Source: Escherichia phage vB_EcoM_LNA1. Taken from it: a stretch of 64,000 bases of DNA. The number at the start of each line of letters is the position of its first letter. Position 1 is the stretch's first letter. Both the position numbers and the translations under genes were made by a program. Location of the stretch: sequence record MZ311863.1; one strand, 5' to 3'. The notes under the pieces were generated by a model. That model made no database searches, was not told the DNA's origin, and saw nothing but the letters and a program-made list of their open reading frames with translations. This document shows, one piece after another, positions 856 through 59,032 of this stretch.

Positions 856-1371
856 TTATTTAACCTCAAAAACTGGCTCAAGAACCAATATAAAGTCTAC
901 ACAGTCATCTTCTTCATCCAGAATACCATCAAAGTTCTTAGGAACGAAGTCGAAGAGGCTCATAACAAAGCAGTCAGAAGTGACCTTGATAGTCCCTCCC
1001 ATGTTCTCTACAGTCAACACTGTACGACTTTCTTTTACCTCCCTCAGAAGATTACCCACAAAGTCGTCTAAGAAGTACTTCATCAGTGACTTGAAACCTT
1101 TAGGGTAATCTGTACCAGAGTATGTTTCAATCTGAGGAACAAGCTCAACATTTATACTAGTCTTTGTTAAGAACGTTTTAGAGAACATACTATCAGGTAA
1201 CTTACAAACAGTCTTTCCAGTACCTTCATGCTCAATCTCAACAAAACCAGCTTCGTCGCCACATGTAACTATTTTAAAAGATGCTTCATTCTCATACTGT
1301 GAAGCCATAAACTTTTTAAGCATCTCTTTAAGGAAGTCTGCATGAGCATCTTGTAAGAAGATATCAATCAT
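856..1371 (-). CDS. hypothetical protein
   Basis: 171-aa ORF tightly packed in minus-strand operon. Confidence 0.4.
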   Translation of the reverse strand: MIDIFLQDAHADFLKEMLKKFMASQYENEASFKIVTCGDEAGFVEIEHEGTGKTVCKLPDSMFSKTFLTKTSINVELVPQIETYSGTDYPKGFKSLMKYFLDDFVGNLLREVKESRTVLTVENMGGTIKVTSDCFVMSLFDFVPKNFDGILDEEDDCVDFILVLEPVFEVK

Positions 1372-1384
1372 AGTTAATCACCTA

Positions 1385-1744
1385 TTATGGGAACAAACAC
1401 TTAATGTCATCGTTTTTGAAAACAAAACTTGTGTAATTATGACCATCAACATCCAGCCAAACAGCCTGAACATCTACACCATCAAGATTTTGGTAAAGCT
1501 CTTTGATGAAGTGGTCTTTTACAATCTGACTGCTAGTTGTTTCCAGCTTAATATTTGAGATTGCTGAACCTACAGCCATATAGCCCATGACACGTTTCTT
1601 CTCAGTATGCTTAATCTTACCATCTTTGTAAGCCATAATGAGATTGGAAAGAATCTTCACACCATAATACTTTTCAAGGTGAGTAGGTACACCATAAAAG
1701 CCTAATGCGAAGTTTTCAGAGTGGATAATGTTTTCACGTTTCAT
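1385..1744 (-). CDS. hypothetical protein
   Basis: 119-aa ORF in operon context. Confidence 0.4.
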   Translation of the reverse strand: MKRENIIHSENFALGFYGVPTHLEKYYGVKILSNLIMAYKDGKIKHTEKKRVMGYMAVGSAISNIKLETTSSQIVKDHFIKELYQNLDGVDVQAVWLDVDGHNYTSFVFKNDDIKCLFP

Positions 1745-1745
1745 A

Positions 1746-2078
1746 TTAATCTACCAGCCTTAAATTAAAATTAACACCAAATTTTTCACATACTTCCAAC
1801 ATATACTCAAGGGAGACATTGCCAGTGAGGTGGATTATGTTGGATACACGAGCCTGAGAGATACCACAAATTTTAGCAACTTGCTCTTGAGAAAGACCTC
1901 TTGATTTAATCTCTCTCTTAAAACGATGTGCAACGAAGTCTCTCATTTCGTCTACATCCATTGGACAAATATAACTCTCCATTTCAGCCTCTCTGTCAGC
2001 CTCCCAATCATCTTGTGGAGCATAAGGGTCAAAAACCTCATTCATCTTTCTTCTTCTTCCGTTTGCGTGAAGTATCAA
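1746..2078 (-). CDS. HTH (XRE-like) DNA-binding protein
   Basis: 110 aa; segment LSQEQVAKICGISQARVSNI matches helix-turn-helix pattern. Confidence 0.5.
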   Translation of the reverse strand: MILHANGRRRKMNEVFDPYAPQDDWEADREAEMESYICPMDVDEMRDFVAHRFKREIKSRGLSQEQVAKICGISQARVSNIIHLTGNVSLEYMLEVCEKFGVNFNLRLVD

Positions 2079-2254
2079 TTAATGAATCTATGTTTGTAGC
2101 CCTAACCTTTTCACGTTCATCATTAAGATAATCGTCAAGAGCCTTTTCAATCTGTGAATCATCTTGACAGATAACTGTAAAGACTGTAAAGCCGTCTGTA
2201 TCATCAATTATCTTACCATAACCGCTTCTGGGATGTAACTTTTTAAGAGCCATA

Positions 2255-2638
2255 TCAAATACCTGTGCAGCTTCTGTTTTCTAAGAAATACTCAACACCA
2301 TACATAGCTTTTTGCATCAAATCTTCTTTAAACTGGATACGATGGTTGAGCATAGCCTGTACATCAATATCATCACGGTGTTTCTCTTTAATGTTTGCAG
2401 ATTGCAGGAAATACTCTGCAAGAACACGATACTGGTAGTCAGTTACCTTATCAGTCATCTCTGTTAAAGACTCTTCAGAGGTTGGTTTAAGTAACTCACC
2501 ATTAGCCAGAGCAACACCTTTAACAATCTGACAAGTATCTTCTGGAACACCGGATAAGTCCACATTTGGGAGTTCTGTTGCATTGACTGGTAAATTCATT
2601 GCCATGACCATTGCAGCAGCTAATAAAATCTTTTTCAT
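2255..2638 (-). CDS. secreted protein with signal peptide
   Basis: 127 aa; N-terminus MKKILLAAAMVMAMNLPVNA is a typical Sec signal peptide. Confidence 0.45.
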   Translation of the reverse strand: MKKILLAAAMVMAMNLPVNATELPNVDLSGVPEDTCQIVKGVALANGELLKPTSEESLTEMTDKVTDYQYRVLAEYFLQSANIKEKHRDDIDVQAMLNHRIQFKEDLMQKAMYGVEYFLENRSCTGI

Positions 2639-2763
2639 AATGACCTCAAAGTTATATTAAATTTTGTATTACGTTGAGTATAAAAATAAGCTATAACACC
2701 TGACTTGTCAACAGATTTTATAGCTTATTTGGCAGATTTTTTATAAGGCTACTGCCATCCTTC

Positions 2764-2823
2764 CATACCAAACCACACCAAACCCTGCCAAACCAGAGCC
2801 TACTAGACCATACCGAACCAAAC
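2764..2823. repeat. cluster of CCAAACC direct repeats in intergenic region
   Basis: accaaaccacaccaaaccctgccaaaccagagcc...ccgaaccaaac; at least 5 copies of CCAAAC(C) within 60 bp. Confidence 0.5.
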
Positions 2824-2925
2824 ATCACTTAAAAACCCTTTTAAAAGGCTCTTAAGTGATGCTGGTGAGTACCCGTTGGTTTATGCTGCTCAGTATACTC
2901 ACCAGATTATCTATGTCAACAACTT

Positions 2926-4026
2926 TTATTCATAATCCCTAATAATTAGCCCTACAGGGAACTGTAAAGACCCCTTACGAGTCATCTTCTGGAACTGAAC
3001 CGTTAAAGGTTTCCCGATAAACTCTTCAGGGTGTTCAGCAAGATACTGTTTCTTCTCGTGAGTAGTCTTCCATGAGACATCTACAAAGACGTTAGGAAGA
3101 GTCTCTACAACGAACTTGCCATGACCACGTTTATCGGTCTTTACACCAGTCACTTTAAACTCTTCAGTGTGCATCTTCTTGTGCTTAATCAAGAAGTATG
3201 AACGGTGACAACACTCATAGAAGGAGTCTTCAGAGATTGAACGGTACATTGCACCTTCAAACTTAGCTTCAACCCACTTATCATGAGCTTCATCAAACTC
3301 TTCCCAAGAATTTACACGGATAGTCTGTACAGGAACCACTCTACAGGTATCCCCAAGCTCAACAATAGGTGAACTATCAATAACTTCACGACGCTCAGGC
3401 CAAGATTTTGAATTGTCACAGATATCATACCAGTAGAATTTAAGAAGGTGACGGTCTGGATTGTCAGCATTCTTAATCATAGAGACAATATCTTCTAAGT
3501 CCCAACCATGAGCATAAATCTCACCATCAAAGTCTTCAACTTGTGGATGTAATTTAAGCAACAAAAGTAAGTCTGGGATTAGTTCTGCTGGAACGTTGTA
3601 AACAGTATTCTCACGAGAATAAGCCGTGAAACTAACTGAATCATCATCTCTTGAAATCCTACAACGGACACCATCAAGTTTCGGTTGAGCATCAGCAGGG
3701 AACTTCAGATACTTTGCATGGCTAACCTTTGCAGCATCGTGAGCAAGCTGTACACCTACCTTCTCAGTATTCTGTGCAGACTCTTTTGTGTAAGCATAAC
3801 CTTTGCGGTCAACTTGCTTTTTATACTTAGCAGCAACTTCAAAGAGAGCTTGCTGTTCAGCGTTACGCTCATTCTTTTTACCGATGTTTTTAGGCTCTGC
3901 TGTGTACTCTTCAAACATCATCTTGCCATTTTCTTTACCGTAGGTTGTAATAACTTTGTCACCTACAGCAACGCATGACCAAACGTTGAAGGAACCATCT
4001 TTATTTTGTTTGTACAGAATTGTCAT
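2926..4026 (-). CDS. ATP-dependent DNA ligase
   Basis: 366 aa; KLDGVR adenylation motif (motif I KxDG) in PKLDGVRCRI. Confidence 0.75.
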   Translation of the reverse strand: MTILYKQNKDGSFNVWSCVAVGDKVITTYGKENGKMMFEEYTAEPKNIGKKNERNAEQQALFEVAAKYKKQVDRKGYAYTKESAQNTEKVGVQLAHDAAKVSHAKYLKFPADAQPKLDGVRCRISRDDDSVSFTAYSRENTVYNVPAELIPDLLLLLKLHPQVEDFDGEIYAHGWDLEDIVSMIKNADNPDRHLLKFYWYDICDNSKSWPERREVIDSSPIVELGDTCRVVPVQTIRVNSWEEFDEAHDKWVEAKFEGAMYRSISEDSFYECCHRSYFLIKHKKMHTEEFKVTGVKTDKRGHGKFVVETLPNVFVDVSWKTTHEKKQYLAEHPEEFIGKPLTVQFQKMTRKGSLQFPVGLIIRDYE

Positions 4027-4280
4027 TTTCTCTTACCACCAATCTCTACGTCGATAACTTGAACATCGCCAGCAACATCAAACTTATGAATGATGCTTTC
4101 CACAGTGTAAGTCCAACCCTCAATGCGAACCAACTCACCTTCTCGTGGGACGATTGGATTACGTTGAGCTACGGTTGTAGTGGAGTGAACAACATCATAA
4201 CAATAGATGTAGTTTACTAAGACTTCCATCGAGAAAACCTCACTCAATAACCGTAGTGTGTGATTGTCCATTTTTGCCAT
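4023..4280 (-). CDS. hypothetical protein
   Basis: 85-aa ORF, overlapping start/stop with neighbours. Confidence 0.35.
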   Translation of the reverse strand: MAKMDNHTLRLLSEVFSMEVLVNYIYCYDVVHSTTTVAQRNPIVPREGELVRIEGWTYTVESIIHKFDVAGDVQVIDVEIGGKRK

Positions 4281-4497
4281 AGTTGTAAGATGTTGTTGTT
4301 TGAGAATTTGGACATCTTACAACAACAATATCTCTGCTTATAGCATCACCATTGAGTTTGTAGATTTTGCAGTCTTGCATCTCTGGAGGGAGGCTGTAAG
4401 AAGCATCTTTGTTTTCATAAGATGGGTTGCATCCAGCCAGAAAAATTACTCCAAGTGCAACCATTGCTTTCACACAAATCTTAACCTTATTGTTCAC
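4240..4497 (-). CDS. putative lipoprotein
   Basis: N-terminus MVALGVIFLAGC has lipobox-like LAGC. Confidence 0.4.
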   Translation of the reverse strand: MNNKVKICVKAMVALGVIFLAGCNPSYENKDASYSLPPEMQDCKIYKLNGDAISRDIVVVRCPNSQTTTSYNYGKNGQSHTTVIE

Positions 4498-6185: not shown

Positions 6186-6453
6186 CATCTGGTCAATACA
6201 CTCGCAAGGTGTACCAGTTCTCTTATGAACTTCTCCGCATTTCTACGGAGTGTCGGACTATATCACGTAGTAGTAATACTACCGTTGCACTTGGGAATGG
6301 TCATTAGCTTACCACCCTACTCTACTCAGTTCATACATTAAGTATGCTTTTCGATAGTCTCTGAACGTTCCTCTCAAGAGGCTTCGCTGCTGATTACCGT
6401 ATCTTCTCAGACTTAGGCTTCCAGCAATTCACAACGTTTTACATGCGCCACTG
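6186..6453 (-). ncRNA. putative ORF-less group I intron in DNA polymerase gene
   Basis: splits motif B (KNGIYA / LLFGAGDEK); 5' exon ends in U, intron ends in G; intron start cagtgGCGCAtg can pair with exon end uGCGU (U.G at splice site); contains GATATAGTCCGAC resembling the Tetrahymena-type P7 core, then hairpin CTCCGTAGAAATGCGGAG (P9-like). Confidence 0.6.
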
Positions 6454-8596
6454 ACGCATAAATGCCATTTTTGGCTTTCTTACGACCTTTTGTAATCTCG
6501 TGAAGAAGTTCCTCGTCCTGTGTCCCCCTACAACGAACAATATCTTCTTCCTTGTTCAGACCAAAGTAAATACTGTTCAGTGTGTGTGCATCAGTACCTG
6601 TGTAGACTTCGTAGAGGTCATTCTCAGCATCATAACGAAGATACTTATCAGTTTCTGGATTGAGGTACTTATCAAGATGCTTGCAATAGTATCTCCCATC
6701 ATCTTGCTTAGTAAATTCTACAAACTCTTTACCTTCAGTTACCGCTTTGGTGAAGTCTTTATCACCCATAAAGTTACACAGTAAAACAAGCTGTGCAGAG
6801 TTCTGGTCAACAGAAACAATGTTAGTACCCTCTTCACAAATCCACACTTCCCTCATAGGTGCTCCATAGACAGCAGCACCAGATGGTACGTTTACAATAC
6901 CATATTGTGTCATACGTCCAGTTGAAGTACCAAATACCATTGCACCAGCACTAAGGCGACCATCGGGACGAATCTGGTTCAACCAACCTTTTTCATCATC
7001 CTTTGAGTTCTCAATAGTTCTGCGTCGGTGCATCAAAGTATAGTACTTAGCAATCTTCTGTCCAAGCTCACCTTCAATCGTATCATAAGATGATTCAGTA
7101 AGCTTTGGTGAAGTACGGATTAAGCAAGGCTCAAGCAAATCTGTGTATTTCTTCACAGACCAGTTATGCTCAATGTACTGTACACCTTCATGTTCAACAT
7201 AGCTCAAACCACACCGCTCAACCATTTCCTGCCACTTAGGATGTTTTGTAATCATCTTTTTATTGTCTTTGAAACGACAAACTTTGACAGGGCGACCATC
7301 TGAGTCTTTCTTGTAGTTCCAGTCATCTGGAATCCAACCAACTGATTTCAAGTAATCTTTAACAACTGCTACCTGAGTCATACGAGAAACTTCGAACTCA
7401 ATTGGTGTATAAGGTGCATCAATCAAACCTGTGTAGCGACTTGACTCAAGCTCAAAGTGATTAACAACATGGCTGTTATAGTACTTCACAGTTTTAACTG
7501 TTTTTACTGGCTTCCAGTCTTTGCATTTCTTACCAATCTTTGCATTCAACTCATTACAAATTGCACGAGCATCCTTCATTGCTACAAAACCTTCCTTGTA
7601 CTCTTCACCAGTTACAGAGTTGGTTGGTGTATAGCAATTTCTCTTTTCAATGTTAAAAATCTTTGTAGTTGGCTTACCAAATGGTTTGATTTCATAAGTC
7701 TGCATCTCACCATTACGTACCTGCTGACGATACTTTGTCTTAGGATACTTGGTAATTCTCTTCAGTCCATCTGCATGACCAAATGTTTCAACATACTCAT
7801 TCCAAGCTTTTGCAAACTCTTCTCCAGTGACTTTACCTTTAGTCTTAATAGTTGGAGGAAGATGTGGTTCAACTTCTGAAGCAAGCTCATTAGTCAACTT
7901 GTCAAGTTCCTTTACATGGAACTCCATAAGCTCTTTATCAGCTTTCCAACCATTGATAGCCTGTTGACTCATCCAGAAAGATGTTTCTTTAGCTCGCATG
8001 TAGGTTTCATAAGTATCTACGCCACACTTCTTTAGCTTGAGATATTCATTATCCAGTGCGCGTTTAGTTTTGGCGTTAATACGGATATCTTCCACAACAC
8101 GAGTGAAGATTTCTGCATTCCACACACCCCAATGTTCAATCTCTGGTTTACGTACACCAACACGAGCACCCCATGCAGCCAAGCCATGAGCACCTTTATA
8201 ACCTTTTGGAGTTGGTCTATCCATCCACTGAACACGGGACTGGATAAGAGAATCCTGAAAGAAATTACTCCACGGTTTACACTTTGGATTATCAAAGTTC
8301 CATAAATCCGGTGCAATGTGATTGAAAACCCACCAGTCATAACCGAGACCGTTATGGATACAAAGACGTTTTGCCTTTAACGCAAACTCAACACCTTCAC
8401 GTAAGCCACCCTTAATGTACTTAGTGTACTTGTGACCGAGGATAGGCTCATCTGTAAAGACCCATACAGGTGGCTCTTCATCGTCAGATTTATAGTCTGC
8501 AAAGGCCATTACGTGAACTTTAGTGAACTCAAGGAGTAAACCATCAGTTTCTGTATCACCAACCAAATGTAAGTTTTTAAAATCTACGTTTTCCAT
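6454..8596 (-). CDS. DNA polymerase (family A) exon 1: 3'-5' exonuclease domain through first half of motif B
   Basis: VGDTETDGL exo motif near N-terminus; VSVDQNSAQL motif A-like; ends ...RKKAKNGIYA before in-frame stop in intron. Confidence 0.75.
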
Positions 8597-21791: not shown

Positions 21792-22988
21792 ATGAACAAA
21801 GTACAGATTATTAAAAAGAATGGCTCACTTGAAGAACCTGATATCAAAAAAGTTTTAGCAGCAGTCACTAAGTCAGCTAATAGGGTTGGGTATAAAGAAC
21901 TACCACCAGATGTTACCCAAGCTCTTGAGTCAGCATTTATGAGGATTCTGGTAAAATCCACTAAGCAGAATAATTTACTCATTTCAGTAAATGATATTCA
22001 CAGTATTGTTGAGGGTGCTTTGGCAGAAGTCAATCACGAGATTTATGAGTCTTACTCAACATATAGAAATTACCGTAAAGAAGTTGCTCAAAATTGGGAT
22101 GAACTCTACCAGAAGACCAAAGATACACTCTTCTTAGGTGACAGAGAGAATGCTAACTTTGACAGCAGTTTAATTTCTACAAAAGGCTCAATTATTCGTG
22201 GTTACCTGACTAAAGAAATCTTTAAACAGTACCATTTAACACCAGAGGAACTTGAAGCCATTGAAAAAGGGTTTATCTATATCCATGATTTAAGAGACCT
22301 GATTTTTGGTGGTATCAACTGTTGCCTGTTTGACATTGGCAAAGTGCTGAAAGGTGGCTTTGAAATGTCTGGCATTGAATACTGTGAACCGAAGTCTGTA
22401 CTGTCAGCCTTACAGGTTATTGGTGATGTAGTTCTTTCAGCAACTGCACAGCAATTTGGTGGCTTTACTTTAGCAGAGATTGATAAGGTACTTGTACCGT
22501 ATGCTAAAAAATCTTTAGTGTACCACTCAGAGAAAGCTGAAGAGTACGGAATCCCTAAAGAGCAACACTATAATTACGTAATGGAGCAATTACAGAATGA
22601 GTTAACACAAGGTTTCCAATCTCTTGAAATGAAACTTAACACTGTTCCTTGCAGTCGCGGTGATTTTGCATTTACTACTCTGACATTTGGTCTGTTGGAA
22701 CCAGATATGCACAATGAAGATAACCGTCTTCAGTTTATGATTGCCAATACAATCCTTAACGTAAGGATGAACGGGCAAGGAAAAAGCAAAAAACCTGTTG
22801 TGTTCCCTAAACTTGTTTATATCTATGAAGAAACGAGACATAAGCTTGATGTATGCCAAGCAAGGTTGTTTGAAAAAGCTATTGAGTGTTGCTCTAAAGC
22901 GATGTATCCAGATTTCTTAAGTGTGTCTGGTCATGGTGCTGTAGCAGAGGCTTTTGAGCGTTCTGGTAAGGTAATTTCACCGATGGGT
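21792..22988 (+). CDS. nrdD: anaerobic ribonucleotide reductase exon 1
   Basis: N-terminal ATP-cone (MNKVQIIKKNGSLEE...); ends ...VISPMG before in-frame TAA; the conserved PMGCR(A/S)FL block is split here. Confidence 0.75.
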
Positions 22989-23730
22989 TAACAAGCTCTA
23001 TAGCTCATCTAAAACGTGCCTAAACAGGGAAACTCTACAGATGTAGATAATCCTGTGCTAAATGATGTAAGATGTAAGAAACTATATAACATAGGAGTAT
23101 TACATGCCAAATTATCATGTTACTGAAGACGGAAGAGTCTTTAGAGAAAATGGTGTAGAGCTTACACAGTGGAAATCCAACACTGGGTATATGAAAGTAA
23201 AGTTTTACGGTAAGAAGAATCGTGACATGTATGTCCATAGGTTAGTTGCTGAGAAATATGTACCTAACCCAAACAATCTTCCAATTGTAAAACACAAAGA
23301 TGATAACAAACTGAACAACCATGCTTCTAACTTAGAATGGGGAACTCATTCTGAGAATGTTAAAGAAGGTTATGAGAACGGTTGCTACAAGTTTTGTAAG
23401 CGTTCATATGCTGTGAAGGCTACACACAAAGTGACAAAAGAAGTTATTGCTGCCAAGTCAATACGAGAGTTATCCAACATACTCGGATATAATCGCAAGA
23501 CTATCTCTTCAATATTGAAGGGTGTAAAAGAGCATAATAACTTTGAACATGAATTTGAATACATCTAAATGCCGAACGACTAACCGTGATGAATGTAGCG
23601 GTGTAGGGTCAAGCGACTCGAAATGGTACGCTACTTAGAAATAAGTAGAAGATATAGTCTGGACTTACTGGTGACAGTAAGCAGCTTGGATAAAGCGGGG
23701 TAAGCGTAGCGAACTTACCTGAACAACAAG
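22989..23730 (+). mobile_element. putative group I intron with HNH homing endonuclease ORF, inserted in nrdD
   Basis: exon 1 ends in U (ggt), intron ends in G (acaag); joining gives in-frame ...SPMG|CRAFLSPYHNEDGEEFYVGRANIGAVSLNLP; contains AGATATAGTCTGGAC (P7-like core) at about 23650. Confidence 0.7.
23104..23568 (+). CDS. HNH homing endonuclease (intron-encoded)
   Basis: 154 aa; HKDDNKLNNHASNLEWGTHSEN HNH-like motif. Confidence 0.6.
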   Translation: MPNYHVTEDGRVFRENGVELTQWKSNTGYMKVKFYGKKNRDMYVHRLVAEKYVPNPNNLPIVKHKDDNKLNNHASNLEWGTHSENVKEGYENGCYKFCKRSYAVKATHKVTKEVIAAKSIRELSNILGYNRKTISSILKGVKEHNNFEHEFEYI

Positions 23731-24678
23731 TGTAGAGCGTTTTTATCACCATACCATAACGAAGATGGTGAAGAGTTTTATGTAGGTCGTGCTAACATTG
23801 GTGCTGTATCTTTGAACTTACCAATGATTTACCAGTATTCTAAAGAGAATGGCTTAGATTTCTGGAAAGAGCTTGATAAGTACCTAGAAATGATTCGCAG
23901 CTTCCACAAGAAACGTTACGAAATGATTGCTAATATGCCAGCAAGTTCTAACCCTCTTGCATTCACACAAGGTGGCCTGTACAAAGGGAATAAGAAACCT
24001 ACTGACAAGGTTGGCTGGGATATCGTGAAGTCCTTCACAGCTTCTTTTGGGGTTACTGCGCTTGATGAGCTATCTGTTCTTGCTGAAGGTAAACGACTTC
24101 ATGAAGTTGGAAGCTGTAGTTTTGCATATGATGTTCTGGAATATATCAACATGAAGACTGAAGAGTTTAAAAATGAAGATGGCTTCTTATATGCAGTCTA
24201 TGGCACTCCAGCAGAATCACTTTGTGGAACTCAGCTAAAACAGTTCAGAGATATGTTTGGCGTTATCAAAGGCGTTTCTGACAAGGAATACTTTACAAAC
24301 AGTTTCCATATGAATGTTGCAGCAGACATTACACCATTTGAGAAGCAGGACTTAGAAGAACCTTTCTTCCATATCTGTAGAGGCGGCAGAATCCAGTATG
24401 TAAGAGTGGCTAATCCAGAAAACTTATCAGCACTTAAGAGTTGTATTACAAGAGGGATGTTGAAAGGTTTCTATCAGGGACTTAACTTTGACTTAGCAAT
24501 CTGTGAACATTGTGGTAACAGACCAAAGGCTGATGTTGAAGAATGTGATGTTTGCCATTCACATGATATTTCTGTGATTAACAGGGTGTGCGGATATCTG
24601 GGATGGACTAAGATTAAAGGTGAATCCCGAATGAACGATGCAAAAATCGCTGAGATTCGTGACAGAATTTCTATGTAA
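23731..24678 (+). CDS. nrdD: anaerobic ribonucleotide reductase exon 2
   Basis: C-terminal Zn-ribbon CEHCG...CDVCH and glycyl-radical motif RVCGYLG; ORF track start at 23812 is TTG within the continuous frame. Confidence 0.75.
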   Translation, partial: CRAFLSPYHNEDGEEFYVGRANIGAVSLNLPMIYQYSKENGLDFWKELDKYLEMIRSFHKKRYEMIANMPASSNPLAFTQGGLYKGNKKPTDKVGWDIVKSFTASFGVTALDELSVLAEGKRLHEVGSCSFAYDVLEYINMKTEEFKNEDGFLYAVYGTPAESLCGTQLKQFRDMFGVIKGVSDKEYFTNSFHMNVAADITPFEKQDLEEPFFHICRGGRIQYVRVANPENLSALKSCITRGMLKGFYQGLNFDLAICEHCGNRPKADVEECDVCHSHDISVINRVCGYLGWTKIKGESRMNDAKIAEIRDRISM

Positions 24679-27350: not shown

Positions 27351-27401
27351 ACAGATACTATAAGGGGACTGTAAAGGTTCCCTTTTTATTTTGGAGATAA
27401 A

Positions 27402-27917
27402 ATGTATCTGTCAAACCTGAAACGTTCGGCTGCAATGTCAGTTCTAAGACTCAGCTTTGAGGAACGTCAAGAGTTCATTGACTCCCACCAATACGACCCT
27501 TCTAACTCGAATCACATGGTTCTTTGGAATCGTGATAGTACTCGTGAAAGAGCACTATTCCGCTACTACCCACATTACACCGTAGACAACCTGTATGAAT
27601 GTTTTGTTGTGAAGAACACCATTACAGTACTCAATAAACTTTGCAGATACACAGGTAGTCAATCCTTCACATTAGGACATCACAAACCTGTTACAAAGGG
27701 TGGTGAGCATCACTGTGCAAACTGGTTTATCCAGACTAGACTCGATAACCAGAGGCAAGGTGATAGTCTTTTAAGTACCCCTAAGATGTCCTATGAAGAG
27801 CAAGAGAAATATATCAAAAATAATATGCCAGATGTGCTTGACAACAACTATACAGATTTGGCAATATCTCTCCTGTTGAAGTTCGAGACAGTTTATAGGG
27901 CAACTTATAATGGCTAA
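27402..27917 (+). CDS. putative HNH-like endonuclease
   Basis: 171 aa; GHHKPVTKGGEHHCANWFIQTRLDNQ weakly resembles His-Me finger. Confidence 0.3.
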   Translation: MYLSNLKRSAAMSVLRLSFEERQEFIDSHQYDPSNSNHMVLWNRDSTRERALFRYYPHYTVDNLYECFVVKNTITVLNKLCRYTGSQSFTLGHHKPVTKGGEHHCANWFIQTRLDNQRQGDSLLSTPKMSYEEQEKYIKNNMPDVLDNNYTDLAISLLLKFETVYRATYNG

Positions 27918-28188
27918 AGAGAAGTGGGAGATTTTACCATTAGTCAGTGAAGGCGGTAATGGTTGTGAAATGTACATGATACGTGGTCATGTTCCAGAAC
28001 CAATTGCACTTGAGATGGTAAACAACTTTACAGATGGCTCTTACAAAGACTTAGGGGAGCCAAATATAAAGCAGCAATGGGTAAAGCCTGTACCAGACAG
28101 CACAGGTAACTGTAGTGTACTTTATCACGTTGTAGACCCTGCAAAATGCAAATCTGCAATGGCAGTAACAAACGTAACTTTTGATTGA
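27910..28188 (+). CDS. hypothetical protein
   Basis: 92-aa ORF. Confidence 0.3.
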   Translation: MAKEKWEILPLVSEGGNGCEMYMIRGHVPEPIALEMVNNFTDGSYKDLGEPNIKQQWVKPVPDSTGNCSVLYHVVDPAKCKSAMAVTNVTFD

Positions 28189-29081
28189 GAGAGAAAACTA
28201 TGAAAACTGTTATTGAAGCCGTCGTCACCGCTCAAGAGAAATTCTTCCACACAGAAAAATTTAATATCATTCAATTCCCATCTGGAGAAATTGGTGGAAA
28301 CTTCTCTGAAGATTTTGTTAAGTTTACTGAGCGTAATGCTGGTAAGATTGATAATGTTATAATTACTGTACAGGGATATGACAAAGATACACTGTTTGCA
28401 TTAGCTTTGGCTAAGGATGCCGTTGACAGTCTTGTTCCCCAGAAATCAGCGATGAAAACCGTTGTTTTCGGGTTCTTACCAAATGCTCGATATGACCGCC
28501 ACATGTTCAAAGGTGATGCAGCAGCACTGAAAGTCTTTGCCAACCTAGTTAATGCAATGGGTTTTGATGCAGTATGTGCTCTTGACCCTCACAGTAATGT
28601 TGCAGAAAACTTATTTAAGTGCTTTCAAAGCATGAAGCAAAAAGATGTGGCAGTACACTTTGCAAGTGACCCACGCATTGATTTCTTGGTAGCCCCAGAT
28701 GCAGGTGCAGCTAAGAAGACTGAAGATACCGCTAAAGAGGTGGATAAACCGTATATCACAATGTCTAAGGTGCGCAATCTTAAGACTGGAGAAATCACTG
28801 GTATGCGAATCCTTGACGATGTTGATTTGACCGATAAAACTGTCATGATTCTTGATGATATCTGTGATGGTGGTCGAACCTTCGTAGAGGCAGCTAAACA
28901 CCTACGTGAAGCAGGTGCAAAACGTGTGGAACTCTATGTAACTCATGGTATTTTCTCTAAAGGTGTTGAAAACTTGCTTGACAACGGTATTGACCATATC
29001 TACACTACAAACACTTTAGGTGAAGCTAAAGACCGTGGCTTAACACATTACGCCCAAGTTACTGTAGCAACCATTGATTGA
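28185..29081 (+). CDS. prs: ribose-phosphate pyrophosphokinase (PRPP synthetase)
   Basis: 298 aa; PRPP-binding loop MILDDICDGGRT (consensus DDxxDTGGT). Confidence 0.7.
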   Translation: MREKTMKTVIEAVVTAQEKFFHTEKFNIIQFPSGEIGGNFSEDFVKFTERNAGKIDNVIITVQGYDKDTLFALALAKDAVDSLVPQKSAMKTVVFGFLPNARYDRHMFKGDAAALKVFANLVNAMGFDAVCALDPHSNVAENLFKCFQSMKQKDVAVHFASDPRIDFLVAPDAGAAKKTEDTAKEVDKPYITMSKVRNLKTGEITGMRILDDVDLTDKTVMILDDICDGGRTFVEAAKHLREAGAKRVELYVTHGIFSKGVENLLDNGIDHIYTTNTLGEAKDRGLTHYAQVTVATID

Positions 29082-29090
29082 AACTTTATA

Positions 29091-29111
29091 GGGGCTTGAA
29101 AGCCCCATTTT
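29091..29111 (+). terminator. putative intrinsic terminator
   Basis: ggggcttgaaagcccc hairpin plus atttt. Confidence 0.4.
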
Positions 29112-29126
29112 GAGAGAGATTAAAAG

Positions 29127-30908
29127 ATGACTAAATCGCTTTACGCAGTACCAGCAGGTTTAAACGCAGATGCTTACAAATCTGGTCATGTTTACCAGTA
29201 CCCTAGTGCAACAGAATACTTGATGTTCAACCTGACACCACGTAGTGACAAATGGTTTAACAGCCCCTTAGCAATTGATGGTGTAGTAGCTTTTGGTATT
29301 CAACGTTTCGTTAAAGATTACCTGATAGACCACTGGAACGCCACTTTCTTTGAACGTGATAAAAAAGAAGCAGTTGACGAAATCTTAGAAGTCATGAATG
29401 GTGTTCTGGGTAAAGATGCTATCGGTCGAGAGCATTGGGAAGCACTTCACGATTTAGGCTATCTACCAGTTGAAGTATACGCTGTAGAAGAAGGTACAGT
29501 TGTTCCTATGCGTGTTCCAATGATTGTCTTCCAGAACACTGTTTCAGGTTTCCATTGGGTAGCAGGTTATCTGGAAGATGCTTTCTCTGCTGAGATTTGG
29601 AAGACTTGCACCATTGCAACTATTGCATTGCACTACAAACGTATCTGTAAGAAGTGGGCTGACCTTACTTGCGACAATGACTTACATTTACCTTATCAGT
29701 GCCATGACTTTGCTATGCGTGGTATGTCCGGCTTTACCGATGACGCATTTAATGCTGTAGGTCACTTAACCAGCTTTAAAGGAACTGATAGCTTCCCTGC
29801 TGTATACACGGCTAAACGCATCTATGGACAGTCTTACCCAATTTCTGATATTGGTAGTTCTGTACCAGCCACTGAACACTCTGTAATGTGTGCAAACATT
29901 GCTTGGGAAGGTGGTAATGAATTGATTGAAGAGGAAAGACGCTTTAAAGGTGAGTTGCAAACCTTCCGTCGTTTCTTAACAGAAACTTACCCAACTGGTA
30001 TTGCAAGTATTGTTTCAGATACTTATAACTTCTGGAGAACTGTGTCAGAAATCTTACCAGCACTTCGTAAAGAAATTATGGAACGTGATGGTAAGCTGGT
30101 AATTCGCCCTGACTCTGGAGACCCTGTACATATTGTCACAGGCTATAAAGCAATCCACTTAGAGTGTGCTAAGAAGACTTATTATGAGCACCTAAGCAAG
30201 CTGGAAGCTAGTGACACAATGTTGAATGCTGTTCTGAACATGAAGCTTGAAAACATCAACTATGGTATTGCTGGATGGCTACTGTCAGAAGGCTACGAAA
30301 TGGTTGTTGACAGAGAAGACTTTGAAGTTGCTGATACAGTGATGTTGAAAAATGCTTATATGGTTGGCTCTGCAAACGTTGTAACACGTCCTGTAGCAGA
30401 GATTGATGGAGCTATTAAGACCCTGTACAACATCTTCGGAGGGACTATTAACTCTAAAGGGTTTAAGGTACTGGATGAGCACATCGGCCTTATCTATGGT
30501 GACTCTATCACGCTGGAACGTGCAAACGAAATCCTGAAGCGTCTGTATGAAATGGGTTTTGCAAGCTCTAACGTAGTGTTTGGTGTAGGCTCTTACACTT
30601 ACCAGTACATGACTCGTGACACCTTTGCATTTGCTGTCAAAGCAACTCTTGCAAGCATTGGTGGTAAAGAGATTATGCTTGCAAAAGACCCTAAAACAGA
30701 TAGTGGTGTTAAGAAATCTGCCTTTGGTGGTGTAGCACCTATGTGGGATGGTGATAAGCTGAAAGCTGTAGATGGCTATGGATTCCAGAGTTTTGCAGAT
30801 GTACTTGACCACCAAGCTTGTGCTTTACGTTTAGTCTTTAGCGACTCTGAGCAGTTCGGTTATACAACTCTTGGAGATATTCGAAATAATATTGACAAGC
30901 AGCTTTAA
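29127..30908 (+). CDS. nadV: nicotinamide phosphoribosyltransferase (NadV-like)
   Basis: 593 aa; directly follows prs; GHLTSFKGTDS and general NAPRTase-family architecture (motif-level call from memory). Confidence 0.6.
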   Translation: MTKSLYAVPAGLNADAYKSGHVYQYPSATEYLMFNLTPRSDKWFNSPLAIDGVVAFGIQRFVKDYLIDHWNATFFERDKKEAVDEILEVMNGVLGKDAIGREHWEALHDLGYLPVEVYAVEEGTVVPMRVPMIVFQNTVSGFHWVAGYLEDAFSAEIWKTCTIATIALHYKRICKKWADLTCDNDLHLPYQCHDFAMRGMSGFTDDAFNAVGHLTSFKGTDSFPAVYTAKRIYGQSYPISDIGSSVPATEHSVMCANIAWEGGNELIEEERRFKGELQTFRRFLTETYPTGIASIVSDTYNFWRTVSEILPALRKEIMERDGKLVIRPDSGDPVHIVTGYKAIHLECAKKTYYEHLSKLEASDTMLNAVLNMKLENINYGIAGWLLSEGYEMVVDREDFEVADTVMLKNAYMVGSANVVTRPVAEIDGAIKTLYNIFGGTINSKGFKVLDEHIGLIYGDSITLERANEILKRLYEMGFASSNVVFGVGSYTYQYMTRDTFAFAVKATLASIGGKEIMLAKDPKTDSGVKKSAFGGVAPMWDGDKLKAVDGYGFQSFADVLDHQACALRLVFSDSEQFGYTTLGDIRNNIDKQL

Positions 30909-30922
30909 AAGTATATGATAAG

Positions 30923-30945
30923 AGGCTCCTACGGGAGCCTTTTTA
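30923..30945 (+). terminator. intrinsic terminator
   Basis: gaggctccTACGggagcctc hairpin plus tttt. Confidence 0.55.
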
Positions 30946-40162: not shown

Positions 40163-40948
40163 ATGGGTATTGTAAAAATCATCAAAGGGGATATCTTTGA
40201 CGCCTTTGATAAAGGTAAATTTGATATCATCGGTCATGGTTGCAACTGTATGAATTTCATGGGTGCAGGTATTGCAGCAACTATTTCTAAGCGTTATCCA
40301 AAAGTGTATGATACTGACACAGAAGTTTACCTGTTTGCAGGTGGCATCCGTCACAAACCCTGTGAAAATTTACTAGGTAATTTCTCTGTAGCACGTTTAA
40401 AACAAGGTCGTATAGCTAACCTTTACACCCAACTTCATACTGGTAAAGATGCCCGATACAGTGCTTTAGAGTCATCTTTGAAACAGCTTAACAGATACTG
40501 TGAAGTTAACCAGTTGAAGAAAGTTGGCCTGCCTATGATTGGTGCAGGTATCGGTGGACTTGACCCTCAAGCTGTCACAGTTATCATCAATCAGGTGATG
40601 AAGAGCGTAGATGTTTACCTGTATGTCTACGAGGCAGAGATGTACAACAAGTTACACTCAGGTTGGAAGAACTACTGTGAACCAGAATACTTTGCGGGTG
40701 TAGTAGTGTTCACAGACAACACAGTTACCCTCTTCAGACGAAGAAAAGGTAAGATACATCAAAGTAACCCTCCGGTTGAAAAGATGTCTCTAAGTAACGC
40801 TCTAGTTACCCACCTGTCGAAGAGCAATCACAGGATTGCAGTAACATTTGGCAGCGATGCAGATGCTTACATCTATGCAAGAACTGATGAGGCTATCGAG
40901 ACGGTTTTCTCTTCACCGGAAGTTACCTTCTTAGACGCAAAGAACTAA
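40163..40948 (+). CDS. macro-domain (ADP-ribose-binding/processing) protein
   Basis: 261 aa; IIGHGCNCMNFMGAGIAATI resembles macro-domain N-x(5)-GGG-[VI]-x(2)-AI region. Confidence 0.5.
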   Translation: MGIVKIIKGDIFDAFDKGKFDIIGHGCNCMNFMGAGIAATISKRYPKVYDTDTEVYLFAGGIRHKPCENLLGNFSVARLKQGRIANLYTQLHTGKDARYSALESSLKQLNRYCEVNQLKKVGLPMIGAGIGGLDPQAVTVIINQVMKSVDVYLYVYEAEMYNKLHSGWKNYCEPEYFAGVVVFTDNTVTLFRRRKGKIHQSNPPVEKMSLSNALVTHLSKSNHRIAVTFGSDADAYIYARTDEAIETVFSSPEVTFLDAKN

Positions 40949-46709: not shown

Positions 46710-46958
46710 ATGGCAACTATCCGCGCAACTGTTAACGCTTATGGCTGTTATACTCTGGACGTTAAATTTGATATTGGTGGGACTGATGAATGTTTTTCCT
46801 TAGTGAAGACAGTTATCAAGCAAGTTATTCCAGACTATAACCCTACTGATGACTTCTGGAAAGATGCCGTAAAAGAGGCCATAAACGATGAGCATCACTA
46901 TCACTATTGGGGCGATTTAATTGTTTCCCTGTACTACAGCAAACAAGGTTACAACTAA
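46710..46958 (+). CDS. small hypothetical protein (cassette gene)
   Basis: 82 aa. Confidence 0.4.
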   Translation: MATIRATVNAYGCYTLDVKFDIGGTDECFSLVKTVIKQVIPDYNPTDDFWKDAVKEAINDEHHYHYWGDLIVSLYYSKQGYN

Positions 46959-46968
46959 TCGACGCAAC

Positions 46969-46990
46969 GGGGCTAAATAGCCCCAGATAC
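46969..46990 (+). terminator. putative intrinsic terminator
   Basis: ggggctaaatagcccc hairpin after last cassette gene. Confidence 0.4.
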
Positions 46991-48640
46991 CTTCAAAGCT
47001 CCTTTTCATAGGGGCTTTTTTACGTCTTATCGAATCCCTATACAATCCCTTTCCCTTTCCTTTCCAGAATCTCTCCCACTGATTCGATAGAATCTATCTC
47101 AGACCTTAAAAAGCAATAACTCTGTAGCTTATCCTATAGCCTTTTATCAAATCAACTTAAATATAAGCCCATAACCCGAAAGGGAAGGGCAACCATTTAA
47201 ACGCCCTATAAAGCCCTATAACGGCCTTTTTAACCTAACTTAAGGGATTGCATTACCTCACCCTTAAAAGCCCTTTATAAAGCTTCCCAGAGCCTTAAAA
47301 GAATCTTATAAGGGTGTAAGCTTTATCATCTCGTTAGTATTCTTGTGAATAACTAAAAAGGGCTTGTCAGTGTCTTAAAAGTATGTTATAGGGGCTATAA
47401 AGTTACTTCAAAGTTACGTGATAGATAGCTTAAAAGTTACGTAAATGCTAGCCCCCTTAACATTTTCTTAACAATTTCTTAACAAACCCTACATAGTTAT
47501 GCTTGTTAGGGACTTGTTAGCAACTTGTTAAATCTCTGTTACAACCATGTAAAAGCCTTGTAAGAACCTTTGACATAGCCTTTAAAGCTCCTGTAAAGCC
47601 CTATAAAGGGCTATCCATACAGTTGAGGGGTAAATACTAGGGAGAGCCTGAAAAGAGCCTATAAAGGGCTATAGAGAGCTTTTAAAAGGGCTATTTAGAG
47701 AGTCACTAAGAGGGAAAGGGAACGATAAGAAAAGAATAGTGACCATGTTAATAGCCTGTTAAAAAGATTAAACACTTGTTAGGAACTTGTTAATTATCTT
47801 AACAAAATAACCCTTTAAAATTAACTTGTTAACTCTTGTTAGTCATCTGTTAAGACTCTGTAAAGACCATATAGCAACTGTTAAGGAACTGTTACCCTCT
47901 TGTTAAAACTGTTAAAAATCTGTTAATACCTCTGAAGAGATGTTAAAAAGATGTGAGAACTGTTGAGAGATTGTTAATGATATTTTAAAATTTTGCAAAG
48001 GGGGTGTTAAGGAGCTGTTAAGGGCTACCAAGCAGATATACATCTTCTACAGATATTTTTCAGTTCCTTCAAAAACCCTAAAAAATGACTTGATAGTCCT
48101 ATTTTATAAAAATTTTAAAAATCTGAATAATTACCCAGACAGTCTTTTAAAAATACAGGCATAAACAGGCTTATAAGATACCTTGTTAGTACCGTGTTAG
48201 ACCTTGTGAGATAAGGTCTGTAAAGATATTCCTGTTAAGTTTGTTAAAACAGTCTATATAGAGGCTTAGTAATACCTAGTGAACACCTATAGAGGGTAAC
48301 ATAGCTTACCTAGAGATTAAGAGGTGTATAGGAGCTTCTAAGAGGGTGTAGAGGTATGGTTAAGGTGATTGTATAGGTTGTTAAGAAGGCTTGTTAGAAG
48401 AGTGTTTAGAAGGACTATACAGAGGGGCTATTAAGACCACTAGATAGATACTAAGATGCTATATAGTACTATATAACTATATAGAGAGTAAGATTAAGAA
48501 GGTTGTTAAGAAGGATAGATATTTTATTCACATATGATGGTGACCCAGAGGTTGGGACAACCGATAAAATTTTATAAAAAATATAAATTTCGTAAATTTT
48601 ACTCAATAAAAAGCCCCCAATTAAGGAGGCTCTTAAGATA
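46985..48640. repeat. ORF-free region dense in short direct repeats
   Basis: no ORF of 60 aa or more on either strand across about 1.65 kb; more than 30 copies of YTGTTAR (cttgttag, ctgttaa, ttgttaa), plus recurring CTTAAAAG and TATAAAGGGCTAT words. Confidence 0.6.
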
Positions 48641-58385: not shown

Positions 58386-58462
58386 CTCTGTTTAGCTCAG
58401 CTTGGTAGAGCGTTCCGTTTGGGGCGGTAAGGCCGGAGGTTCAAGTCCTCCAACAGAGACCA
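58386..58462 (+). tRNA. tRNA-Pro (UGG)
   Basis: manual fold: acceptor ctctgtt/aacagag (C1-G72), D-arm gctcagcttggtagagc, anticodon loop tttgggg, T-arm ggagg-ttcaagt-cctcc, CCA encoded. Confidence 0.65.
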
Positions 58463-58469
58463 AATTAAT

Positions 58470-58547
58470 GTTCCAGTAGACAAAATGGTATAGTCACCAC
58501 TCTTTCAAAGTGGATATTTGAGGGTTCAAATCCCTTCTGGAACGCCA
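58470..58547 (+). tRNA. tRNA-Glu (UUC)
   Basis: acceptor gttccag/ctggaac, anticodon arm ccact-ctttcaa-agtgg, T-loop ttcaaat. Confidence 0.6.
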
Positions 58548-58552
58548 GTTTT

Positions 58553-58630
58553 GACAGAAGACCAATTACAGCAAACTTAATCTTATTCATCTGAAGGTAA
58601 ATCGGACAAAGAAGAGATTTGGTCTGGTCA
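58553..58630 (+). repeat. inter-tRNA repeated element (copy a)
   Basis: gACAGAAGACCaaTTACAGCAA ... tttGGTCTGGtca; same 5' and 3' motifs recur in 3 further units. Confidence 0.5.
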
Positions 58631-58638
58631 TTAAGAAT

Positions 58639-58715
58639 TGCGGGTATAGAGAAAGGGCGTCTCACATGTCTCATTAGCATGGTATCGGCAGGTTCGACTC
58701 CTGCACCCGCCTCCA
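58639..58715 (+). tRNA. tRNA with CAU anticodon (Met or Ile2-type)
   Basis: D-arm gaga-aagggcg-tctc, anticodon arm catgt-ctcatta-gcatg, T-arm gcagg-ttcgact-cctgc; acceptor pairing imperfect, exact ends uncertain. Confidence 0.5.
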
Positions 58716-58720
58716 AATTT

Positions 58721-58790
58721 TACAGAAGACCGTTTACAGCAATATTTATTAAATTTTTAGCGGAAAAATTGAAAGATACGGTCTGGTAAT
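58721..58790 (+). repeat. inter-tRNA repeated element (copy b)
   Basis: tACAGAAGACCgtTTACAGCAA ... acGGTCTGGtaat. Confidence 0.5.
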
Positions 58791-58799
58791 ACTAAATAT

Positions 58800-58876: not shown

Positions 58877-58885
58877 AATTTAAAT

Positions 58886-58973: not shown

Positions 58974-58994
58974 ATTTTGATAGGGCTACTTAGC

Positions 58995-59030: not shown

Positions 59031-59032
59031 GG

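Follow-up and report, generated by a model that had tools for sequence, protein, structure and literature searches.

The window analysed here is the whole stretch of 64,000 nucleotides from Escherichia phage vB_EcoM_LNA1 (MZ311863.1). Its DNA is 99.6% identical to that of Escherichia phage Andreotti and 97.1% identical to that of Bas63 (JohannRWettstein), and the phage is a Felixounavirus. Two open reading frames of the plus strand, 28185–29081 and 29127–30908, form an adjacent and co-oriented pair, as a preliminary description of the sequence had stated, with a gap of 45 nt between them. Their counterparts in Bas63 (gp79/gp80, bas63_0079-0080) compose the operon in which NAD+ reconstitution pathway 1 (NARP1) was defined (Osterman et al., “Phages reconstitute NAD+ to counter bacterial immunity”, bioRxiv 10.1101/2024.02.11.579819). 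Synteny with Bas63 extends from NrdG to rIIA, and the pair, set in this Felixounavirus context, has the layout that characterizes NARP1, namely adjacent and co-oriented genes in a phage genome. The start of the first gene had been placed at TTG 28185. An open reading frame beginning there does exist, but ATG 28200, which yields a protein of 293 residues, is more likely the true start. It sits 3' of GAGAGAGA, a Shine-Dalgarno-like stretch, and agrees with the Bas63 annotation, while TTG 28185 shares bases with the stop codon that ends the preceding gene. The features of the locus, together with one distant gene that is considered below, are the following:

27362–27384, plus strand: terminator-like hairpin, upstream (consensus scan).
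28200–29081, plus strand: adps, predicted ADPR-pyrophosphate synthetase (Prs-like), 293 aa (orthology to bas63_0079, profiles, residue mapping).
29091–29106, plus strand: GC-rich hairpin in the gap that separates adps from namat, GGGGCU-UGAA-AGCCCC and then AUUUUG (RNA folding).
29127–30908, plus strand: namat, predicted nicotinamide ADPR-transferase (Nampt-like), 593 aa (orthology to bas63_0080, PDB matches, AF2 model).
29244–29255, plus strand: selectivity-clamp loop (SCL) of Namat, S40-D41-K42-W43 (alignment to SpβL1 Namat, whose R40 aligns with K42).
29901–29954, plus strand: insertion site 1 of Namat, residues ~259–276, of variable length among homologues and absent from short forms (alignments).
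30144–30407, plus strand: insertion site 2 of Namat, residues 340–427, an autonomous α/β mini-domain (β-α-α-α-β-β-α-β-α) common to Ounavirinae-like phages.
30588–30620, plus strand: selectivity-clamp helix signature of Namat, GSYTYQYMTRD, residues 488–498 (consensus match).
30920–30943, plus strand: terminator-like hairpin with a T-run, 12 nt past the namat stop codon (consensus scan).
40163–40948, plus strand: macrodomain protein, 261 aa, Adpp homologue and tentative accessory (Pfam Macro, 30.1 bits for a cut-off of 22).

The intergenic hairpin has a centroid fold of -11.5 kcal/mol and an MFE z-score of -2.7 relative to shuffled sequences. It is identical in Bas63 although the bases flanking it differ, and it was missed by the terminator scan because just four T come after it. 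Weak attenuation is one conceivable role; stabilisation or processing of the RNA is another. The hairpin downstream of namat combines a 10-bp stem, with five GC pairs, and the run TTTTTAATTT; the transcription unit probably ends at this match to the consensus pattern. Together with the upstream hairpin it may bracket a unit of four genes (27402–27917, 27910–28188, adps and namat). The first two match PHROG 3500 and PHROG 4726, both families of unknown function, and the published deletion and clones, which covered two genes, did without them (bioRxiv 10.1101/2024.02.11.579819). A promoter scan gave 16 sigma-70-like matches (9.5±2.8 expected), a signal too unspecific to place an operon promoter, and this search was set aside. 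The Pfam scan of the genes flanking adps and namat found no Macro (Adpp), RyR (RyDEP) or other Pfam domain. The locus differs in this respect from NARP1 systems accompanied by RyDEP, a RyR-domain cADPR glycosidase encoded in the locus: RyR was detected neither in its flanking genes nor in the insert of Namat.

Sequence comparison and structure modelling identify the locus with high confidence as the NARP1 counter-defence operon of a Felixounavirus. This assignment is made because Adps and Namat share 291 of 293 (99.3%) and 585 of 593 (98.7%) residues with bas63_0079 and bas63_0080, respectively, and all published catalytic and specificity residues are present. The ten substitutions that separate the two pairs, two in Adps and eight in Namat, are conservative and none affects a catalytic or clamp residue. 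The genus, the gene order, the neighbours, the intergenic hairpin and the 593-residue long form of Namat are also common to both phages; the window differs by the absence of bas63_0081, a small ORF located after namat in Bas63.

The published evidence on Bas63 was obtained in vivo. A phage without genes 79-80 is ~20-fold more sensitive to SIR2-HerA, and ADPR-PP (m/z 720.010) is detected in Bas63-infected SIR2-HerA cells, with chromatograms compared to those of the Δ79-80 phage. The Bas63 operon keeps its counter-defence activity in a ΔpncC ΔnadR host and is thus independent of host NMN salvage (bioRxiv 10.1101/2024.02.11.579819). The enzymology was done with SpβL1, ICP1 and other homologues that are 32–45% identical to the window proteins. 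The SpβL1 enzymes produce ADPR-PP and then NAD+ in vitro, their Namat preferring ADPR-PP over PRPP, and Namat homologues that are offered both donors use ADPR-PP exclusively (bioRxiv 10.1101/2024.02.11.579819). When ADPR-PP is absent, SpβL1 Namat also makes NMN from PRPP in vitro (bioRxiv 10.1101/2024.02.11.579819; PMC12774641), and a minor Nampt-like side activity of the window Namat is possible. We infer from the near-identity that the proteins of this phage would behave as those of Bas63 and its homologues do.

Host defences that deplete NAD+, among them SIR2-HerA, DSR1/2, type I Thoeris and SEFIR, cleave it to ADP-ribose and nicotinamide. According to this scheme, Adps would use ATP to pyrophosphorylate ADP-ribose at its terminal ribose, generating ADPR-PP, and Namat would let nicotinamide displace this pyrophosphate to yield NAD+ in one step. 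The pathway would recycle the products of the defence itself, dispensing with PRPP, an NMN intermediate and an NMN adenylyltransferase (NMNAT).

The first protein carries the Pfam domains Pribosyltran and Pribosyl_synth, matches PHROG 619 (E 2e-99) and reaches 138.8 bits with the broad NCBIfam subfamily model TIGR01251, whose cut-off is 113. Its scores fall short of every equivalog and subfamily PRK model for Prs (for example 113.8 bits for a cut-off of 296, and 101.4 for 297). A PDB search by sequence for a solved Adps returned canonical Prs chains only (best 4twb, E 1.5e-18), and the ICP1 Adps gene product from GenBank was therefore used for residue mapping. Identity to the latter is 32%, compared with 25% to E. 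coli Prs. The DDICDGGRT loop reported in the preliminary description is present at residues 219–227 (nt 28854–28880). Its pyrophosphate (PP) loop motif DDICDG is common to the Adps of the window, ICP1 and PaZq-1, whereas E. coli Prs has DDMIDT. K190 (nt 28767–28769) aligns with the lysine of the catalytic β-hairpin (SpβL1 K162, ICP1 K185), and R97, H131, D167, D219, D220 and D223 align with the acceptor-site residues R87, H121, D161, D212, D213 and D216 of ICP1. F16 likewise agrees with the structural work on ICP1 Adps (PMC13586617). Window Adps ends ~20 residues short of E. coli Prs (293 and 315 aa, respectively) and does not have the carboxyl terminal α11-α12 region, which is the regulatory and filament module of canonical PRPS that was lost in Adps (PMC13586617). 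Two clamp- or acceptor-site positions of the locus differ from the structurally characterized homologues: M102 of Adps, which is F92 in ICP1, and A196 of Namat, which is S190 in SpβL1.

The second protein carries the Pfam domains NAPRTase and NAMPT_N, and scores 470.5 bits with NCBIfam NF006629 and E 3e-202 with PHROG 448. The profile check that had been proposed for 29127–30908 leads to nicotinate/nicotinamide phosphoribosyltransferase families, and the matches of both proteins to their families lie far beyond chance. The generic profiles TIGR01251 and NF006629 score both proteins above cut-off, as Prs and as nicotinate/nicotinamide phosphoribosyltransferase, and family-level profiles alone therefore cannot tell NARP1 from a Prs/Nampt pair. 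By sequence, the second protein matches SpβL1 Namat best in the PDB (entries 9w5w/9w5x, E 1e-128). Its AF2 model (pLDDT 93.1) has Namat 9w5x as top structural match (TM 0.95), above NadV and Nampt, with ~39% identity to SpβL1 Namat in the structural alignment.

The published Namat core residues are all found (D15, Y17, F195, R198, D221, A248, H251, R327 and D329). Of these, F195, R198, D221, H251, R327 and D329 correspond to SpβL1 F189, R192, D215, the catalytic His, R306 and D308, and are invariant in an alignment of 32 sequences. The specificity elements follow the same pattern. By the published rule, the third position of the SCL is Arg, Lys or Tyr, the latter two being followed by a stacking residue at the fourth (PMC12774641). 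Window Namat has Lys third and the aromatic Trp fourth (K42-W43), the Bas63-type arrangement, whereas the SpβL1 loop uses R40. The clamp-helix consensus GS-X-Φ1-X-Φ2-X-Φ3-TRD, with X aromatic, is absent from Nampt (PMC12774641). Its match GSYTYQYMTRD presents aromatic residues at the adenine-stacking positions, and G488, S489, Y492, T496, R497 and D498 are invariant among the 32 aligned sequences. The SpβL1 system, with Namat crystal structures 9W5W/9W5X, and the ICP1 system, with Adps structures, share with the window the two genes, the catalytic residues, the PP loop, the SCH clamp signature and the fold.

The unusual length of Namat results from an internal α/β mini-domain of ~88 residues and a second insert of ~15 residues, neither of which is found in SpβL1 or ICP1 Namat. 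It had been proposed that the 593-residue protein carries an extra Nudix or NMNAT domain in its carboxyl terminus. The large insert is internal instead, and the comparisons revealed no likeness to Nudix, NMNAT or other known folds or Pfam families, including RyR. Other phage lineages hold non-homologous inserts at the same hot-spot. The mini-domain might add regulation or the binding of a partner or substrate.

The protein encoded at 40163–40948, whose gene lies ~9.2 kb and about 15 genes downstream of namat, is the only Macro protein found. The Macro domain spans residues 25–141 and is followed by a carboxyl terminal extension of ~100 residues. This protein raises the question of NARP1-AP, the combination of Adps, the macrodomain phosphatase Adpp and Namat that is known from Vibrio phage Gary and Pakpunaviruses. 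The Adps/Namat core and an Adpp homologue are common to NARP1-AP and the window, but in NARP1-AP the macro gene lies inside the operon or within two genes of Adps/Namat, whereas the genes flanking the operon of the window have no Macro domain and its distant macro gene codes for the additional carboxyl terminal region. The unlinked protein may nevertheless supply Adps with ADPR by dephosphorylating the ADPR-1''-phosphate that aRES defence produces, forming NARP1-AP in trans. This reading is supported by an alignment that covers the validated Gary Adpp from end to end (E 5e-15, 28% identity) and by the alignment with the NARP1-adjacent macro protein of the Pakpunavirus PaZq-1 (30% identity, E 2e-21), listed as NARP1-associated in the aRES study. 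In addition, that study scanned ±2 genes around NARP1 and its table contains no Felixounavirus. The distance of ~15 genes and the unexplained extension argue against it, as do the closest solved relatives, which are TARG1/OARD1-type macrodomains (E 1e-6), yeast Poa1p matching only weakly (E 4e-3).

The same macro family also occurs in ~3,000 phage records, which include Proteus phage Privateer and T4-like phages, and synteny gives mixed support to its link with NARP1. The macro gene is near NARP1 in PaZq-1, an arrangement that Klebsiella phage P8734, in which nothing is annotated, does not show; in Privateer no NARP1 gene is annotated within 14 kb of it, and in T4-like phages the family member lies beside the vs gene. 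Since the family occurs without a nearby annotated NARP1, homology is not enough to infer coupling to it. A contribution of this protein to NARP1 in trans is accordingly a tentative proposal, with perhaps one chance in four of being correct. The broader view that Felixounavirus NARP1 exceeds the minimal two enzymes, through a function of the Namat mini-domain and a macro protein that provides NARP1-AP in trans and resistance to aRES, is slightly more doubtful still.

The two-enzyme NARP1 assignment is to be weighed against the enzymology first suggested for the pair, a PRPP synthetase that feeds a NadV-like Nampt to make NMN, which a phage NMNAT, host NadR/NadD or an extra domain would convert to NAD+ in a NARP2-like manner. 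Names favour it, as Pfam, NCBIfam and PHROG describe the proteins as Prs and nicotinamide/nicotinate phosphoribosyltransferase, and so does the NMN made from PRPP by SpβL1 Namat. Canonical Prs (E. coli prs) and Nampt/NadV (human NAMPT, Haemophilus ducreyi NadV 9KE8) have the same folds, catalytic Lys/His and ribose-phosphate-binding residues as the window proteins. Their substrates are R5P and PRPP instead of ADPR and ADPR-PP, E. coli Prs keeps the carboxyl terminal regulatory helices, and Nampt/NadV have no aromatic GS-Y-T-Y-Q-Y clamp. The reading is contradicted by the 99%-identical Bas63 operon that works in a ΔpncC ΔnadR host, by the accumulation of ADPR-PP in infected SIR2-HerA cells and by the exclusive use of this donor by Namat homologues. 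The Namat-specific clamp signature and the failure of every Prs equivalog cut-off are likewise against it.

The preliminary description had noted that no NMNAT is obvious in the window. This observation holds: no CTP_transf_like or Nudix Pfam family is among the matches listed (E ≤ 1e-3) for the 69 window ORFs (for the first 33, 25 of 30 families are among the matches listed), and the complete genome annotation of the near-identical Bas63 lists neither an NMNAT nor a Nudix protein. The ~88-residue insert is too small for such a domain. The explanations offered for the absence, a gene elsewhere, the host enzyme or an extra domain, are superfluous, as NARP1 needs no NMNAT. NARP2 of Vibrio phage KVP40 (NadV/Nampt and NatV/Nmnat) resembles the window in its Nampt-family enzyme and in restoring NAD+ against NAD-depleting defences. 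It differs by proceeding from PRPP through NMN, which requires Nmnat, and by having no Adps partner for its Nampt, whose preferred substrate is PRPP; the window departs from it on both counts, with Adps directly upstream, the Namat clamp signature present and no Nmnat found. The proteins are best described as Adps, on account of near-identity to Bas63 Adps, the failed Prs cut-offs and the signature residues, and as Namat, on account of near-identity to Bas63, the aromatic clamp and the best structural match 9w5x; the PRPP-based route is very improbable. A role in general nucleotide metabolism, with a Prs-like enzyme raising PRPP for phage nucleotide synthesis and a secondary link to NAD, fits the abundance of NrdA/B, NrdD/G, DHFR, dNMP kinase and thymidylate synthase genes around the locus but is the least credible reading, given that 97% of Adps-clade members adjoin a Namat gene (bioRxiv 10.1101/2024.02.11.579819), that Adps is devoid of the elements by which canonical Prs is regulated and forms filaments, and that the published experimental phenotype is NAD+-specific.

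NARP1 is a virus-specific pathway composed of two previously unknown enzymatic reactions that defeats several NAD+-depleting immune systems. The operon found here is already known, and its core adds no new biology because NARP1 was discovered and dissected in a phage with a 99%-identical operon. The idea of counter-defence against NAD-depleting immunity, demonstrated in the literature for that operon, was right, while the enzymology initially attached to it was wrong. Note that standard profile annotation (Prs, nicotinate/nicotinamide phosphoribosyltransferase) mislabels both genes and sends readers in search of a missing NMNAT. Two minor new leads emerge, the Namat insert and the Adpp-like macrodomain gene 9 kb downstream. 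The long form of Namat of Ounavirinae has a well-folded insert that is not mentioned in the structural papers on Namat and Adps consulted. Adpp homologues encoded away from the operon are not counted in the NARP1-AP census, and, if NARP1-AP does operate in trans, its reported share of 15% would be an underestimate.

The adjacent, co-oriented gene pair of the preliminary description is real: an ORF at 28185-29081 (+) is followed, after 45 nt, by one at 29127-30908 (+, 593 aa). The first, adps, most likely starts at the ATG at 28200 and codes for a 293-aa product, because the TTG at 28185 and the preceding gene's stop codon overlap, GAGAGAGAAAACT precedes the ATG, and the orthologous annotated CDS of Escherichia phage JohannRWettstein (Bas63) is exactly equal in length. 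Its product Adps (ADPR-pyrophosphate synthetase) hits Pribosyltran and Pribosyl_synth in Pfam, TIGR01251 in NCBIfam (138.8 bits) and PHROG 619, 'ribose-phosphate pyrophosphokinase' (E 2e-99). For Namat (nicotinamide ADPR-transferase), the product of the second gene, namat, the matches are NAPRTase and NAMPT_N in Pfam, NF006629 in NCBIfam (470.5 bits) and PHROG 448, 'nicotinamide phosphoribosyl transferase' (E 3e-202). These profiles bear out the family names initially given, Prs-like and NadV/Nampt-like. Among Prs models, Adps scores above the cut-off of the broad subfamily model only and below it in every equivalog-level model (e.g., 113.8 vs 296 bits).

By sequence, the locus belongs to a system already published and characterized structurally, the NAD+ reconstitution pathway NARP1; it is orthologous to the type example, with proteins that are 99% identical. 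Adps is identical to bas63_0079 (annotated 'ribose-phosphate pyrophosphokinase') at 291 of 293 residues and Namat to bas63_0080 ('nicotinamide phosphoribosyltransferase') at 585 of 593. Over 3.4 kb, the region shares 99.6% identity with Escherichia phage Andreotti and 97.1% with Bas63, in which, as in the window, NrdG lies upstream and rIIA/rIIB downstream of the pair. Each of 230 phage records covers at least 80% of the region, nearly all Felixounavirus-like, from Escherichia, Salmonella, Shigella and Citrobacter.

NARP1 was discovered in the Bas63 operon of genes 79-80, where Pfam matches initially led to the expectation that Prs would supply PRPP, from which Nampt would form NMN, with host salvage completing the route (bioRxiv 10.1101/2024.02.11.579819). 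The same reading of the window pair, PRPP synthetase plus Nampt, is rejected on the grounds of NARP1 orthology, the host genetics and the reactions of the SpβL1 enzymes. Wild-type Bas63 still overcomes SIR2-HerA in a ΔpncC ΔnadR host, so host NMN routes are dispensable, while the Δ79-80 phage forms ~20-fold fewer plaques on SIR2-HerA cells; ADPR-pyrophosphate (ADPR-PP, m/z 720.010) arose as a new metabolite in Bas63-infected SIR2-HerA cells, with chromatograms compared against the Δ79-80 phage (bioRxiv 10.1101/2024.02.11.579819). Purified SpβL1 Adps pyrophosphorylates ADP-ribose with ATP as donor, and SpβL1 Namat converts ADPR-PP and nicotinamide to NAD+ in one direct step, NAD+ being the sole product when PRPP and ADPR-PP are supplied together (bioRxiv 10.1101/2024.02.11.579819). 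The purpose originally proposed, countering NAD+-depleting immunity, very probably holds for these orthologues of Bas63 genes 79-80: NARP1 overcomes type I Thoeris, DSR1, DSR2, SIR2-HerA and SEFIR. The pathway occurs in 859 phage genomes, or 4.3% of the set analysed, and a Namat gene adjoins 97% of the genes in the Adps clade (bioRxiv 10.1101/2024.02.11.579819).

The signatures of both enzymes are present. Residues of Adps were mapped by the criteria of the ICP1 Adps structure paper (PMC13586617) in an alignment of the window, Bas63, ICP1 and PaZq-1 Adps with E. coli Prs. The catalytic β-hairpin lysine (K190, equal to ICP1 K185), the acceptor-site residues R97, H131, D167, D219, D220 and D223, and F16, the equivalent of F18, are all found. 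The PP loop reads DDICDG, the Adps type, whereas E. coli Prs has DDMIDT, and the protein ends without the α11-α12 region found at the C-terminus of canonical Prs (293 vs 315 aa); one adenine-contact position differs, M102 standing in place of the F92 of ICP1. Namat was mapped against the crystal structure of its SpβL1 counterpart (PMC12774641) and retains the whole Nampt-like core, namely D15, Y17, F195, R198, D221, A248, R327, D329, G458, D459 and the catalytic H251. The helix signature specific to Namat, GS-X-Φ-X-Φ-X-Φ-TRD with X aromatic, reads GSYTYQYMTRD here (residues 488-498), and the loop of the clamp, S40-D41-K42-W43, has the Bas63-type arrangement, with Lys in the third position and stacking by the fourth residue (PMC12774641). 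None of the ten substitutions that separate the two proteins from those of Bas63 falls at these mapped positions. An AlphaFold2 model of Namat, built from a 32-sequence alignment (mean pLDDT 93.1, pTM 0.91), is confident and finds its best structural matches in the Namat crystals 9W5X/9W5W (TM 0.95, normalised to target); NadV from Haemophilus and Nampt from mammals rank lower.

The apparent lack of an NMN adenylyltransferase (NMNAT) was correctly noticed: neither this enzyme nor a Nudix domain is among the Pfam matches (E ≤ 1e-3) listed for 69 ORFs of the window (25 of 30 families shown for the first 33), and neither is annotated across the complete Bas63 genome. NARP1 works without one, so the supply from elsewhere or from the host that had been invoked is not required. 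Nor does the 593-aa protein hide an NMNAT or Nudix domain; its added length is internal, not terminal. Relative to SpβL1 Namat, residues 340-427 (30144-30407 (+)) are inserted between the invariant G339 and G428, and a smaller insertion spans residues ~259-276, after EHSVMCANI. Length varies across the family at both sites; short forms of ~496 aa with neither insert occur in ICP1, in Staphylococcus, Bacillus and Mycobacterium phages and in many enterobacterial genomes. Other phage lineages carry inserts of differing length and sequence, apparently unrelated, at the 340-427 site, which is thus an insertion hot-spot. In the model, the insert is predicted to form a confidently folded α/β mini-domain of ~88 aa within the Namat barrel; it has no match in Pfam, PDB or BFVD.

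The surroundings of the pair comprise the following features:

27362-27384: terminator-like hairpin, upstream bracket of four + strand genes
27402-28188 (+): two small genes directly upstream of adps
29091-29106 (+): GC-rich hairpin in the adps-namat gap, with AUUUUG after it
30920-30943: terminator-like hairpin, downstream bracket of the four genes

The outer hairpins, which enclose the two small genes, adps and namat (all +), may mark the operon limits. The stop and start codons of the small genes overlap or abut; their products are of 171 aa (PHROG 3500, weak HNH-like match) and 92 aa (PHROG 4726), and published NARP1 constructs worked without them. The stable intergenic hairpin (centroid -11.5 kcal/mol, z -2.7) is unchanged in Bas63 despite differing flanking bases and could act in attenuation or stabilise the mRNA. 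The flanking genes code neither for the macrodomain phosphatase Adpp, which defines NARP1-AP (bioRxiv 10.64898/2026.01.28.702374), nor for the RyR-domain glycosidase RyDEP, another add-on (PMC13232231). The locus is therefore a minimal two-gene NARP1, a form that cannot use ADPR-1''-phosphate according to the aRES study (bioRxiv 10.64898/2026.01.28.702374).

Several other features were observed in the window. A group I catalytic intron (Rfam, 61.5 bits vs cut-off 50) lies at 6233-6516 (-) in the DNA polymerase region, adjoined by endonuclease-like ORFs; together with a polymerase ORF of 727 aa (6413-8596), compared with a single 909-aa CDS in Bas63, this suggests an intron-split gene. The anaerobic ribonucleotide reductase NrdD (21792-24678 (+)) is in two ORFs, 21792-22991 and 23812-24678, separated by a 154-aa ORF (23104-23568); no Rfam intron reaches threshold in this region, and the Bas63 equivalent is annotated as a joined CDS with a homing endonuclease inside. 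Between convergent gene blocks, 1.5 kb without ORFs (46958-48469) holds dense short iterated CTTGTTA/TGTTAA units, partly 11-nt spaced, and CTATAAAGGGCT units. This iteron-like stretch, whose Bas63 equivalent carries no annotation, could be an origin or regulatory region. A cluster of 24 tRNA genes with interspersed small ORFs (58386-63556 (+)) is typical of Felixounaviruses.

One macrodomain protein was found in the whole-window Pfam scan, encoded 9.2 kb from the NARP1 genes and adjoining neither:

40163-40948 (+): macrodomain protein, 261 aa, Pfam Macro at residues 25-141 (30.1 bits vs cut-off 22)

Its orthologue in Bas63 is bas63_0095, annotated 'putative phosphatase'. The first ~160 residues of the window protein span the whole of the biochemically validated Vibrio phage Gary Adpp (28% identity, E 5e-15; sequence from Table S1 of bioRxiv 10.64898/2026.01.28.702374) and align with the macro protein of Pakpunavirus PaZq-1 (30% identity, E 2e-21). 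The latter type, entered as NARP1-associated in the same table (bioRxiv 10.64898/2026.01.28.702374), is encoded two genes past Namat in PaZq-1, an example of the NARP1-AP layout whose Namat is also a long form (563 aa). The order in PaZq-1 (L005) 969-4480 is Adps, hypothetical, Namat, hypothetical, macro protein, with small unannotated ORFs interleaved. Since the aRES census scanned two genes either side of NARP1 and its table holds no Felixounavirus (bioRxiv 10.64898/2026.01.28.702374), Felixounaviruses might supply Adpp activity in trans through this protein. This is rather unlikely, however: the macro family occurs in ~3,000 phage records, T4-like phages included, the macro gene of Proteus phage Privateer has no NARP1 gene annotated within 14 kb, the closest relatives of known structure are macrodomains of the TARG1/OARD1 type, and the protein has an extra C-terminal region of ~100 aa with no family match.

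The core system encoded at this locus is already known. The novelty that the window adds is limited to the uncharacterised mini-domain insert of Namat and the unlinked Adpp-like macrodomain gene.
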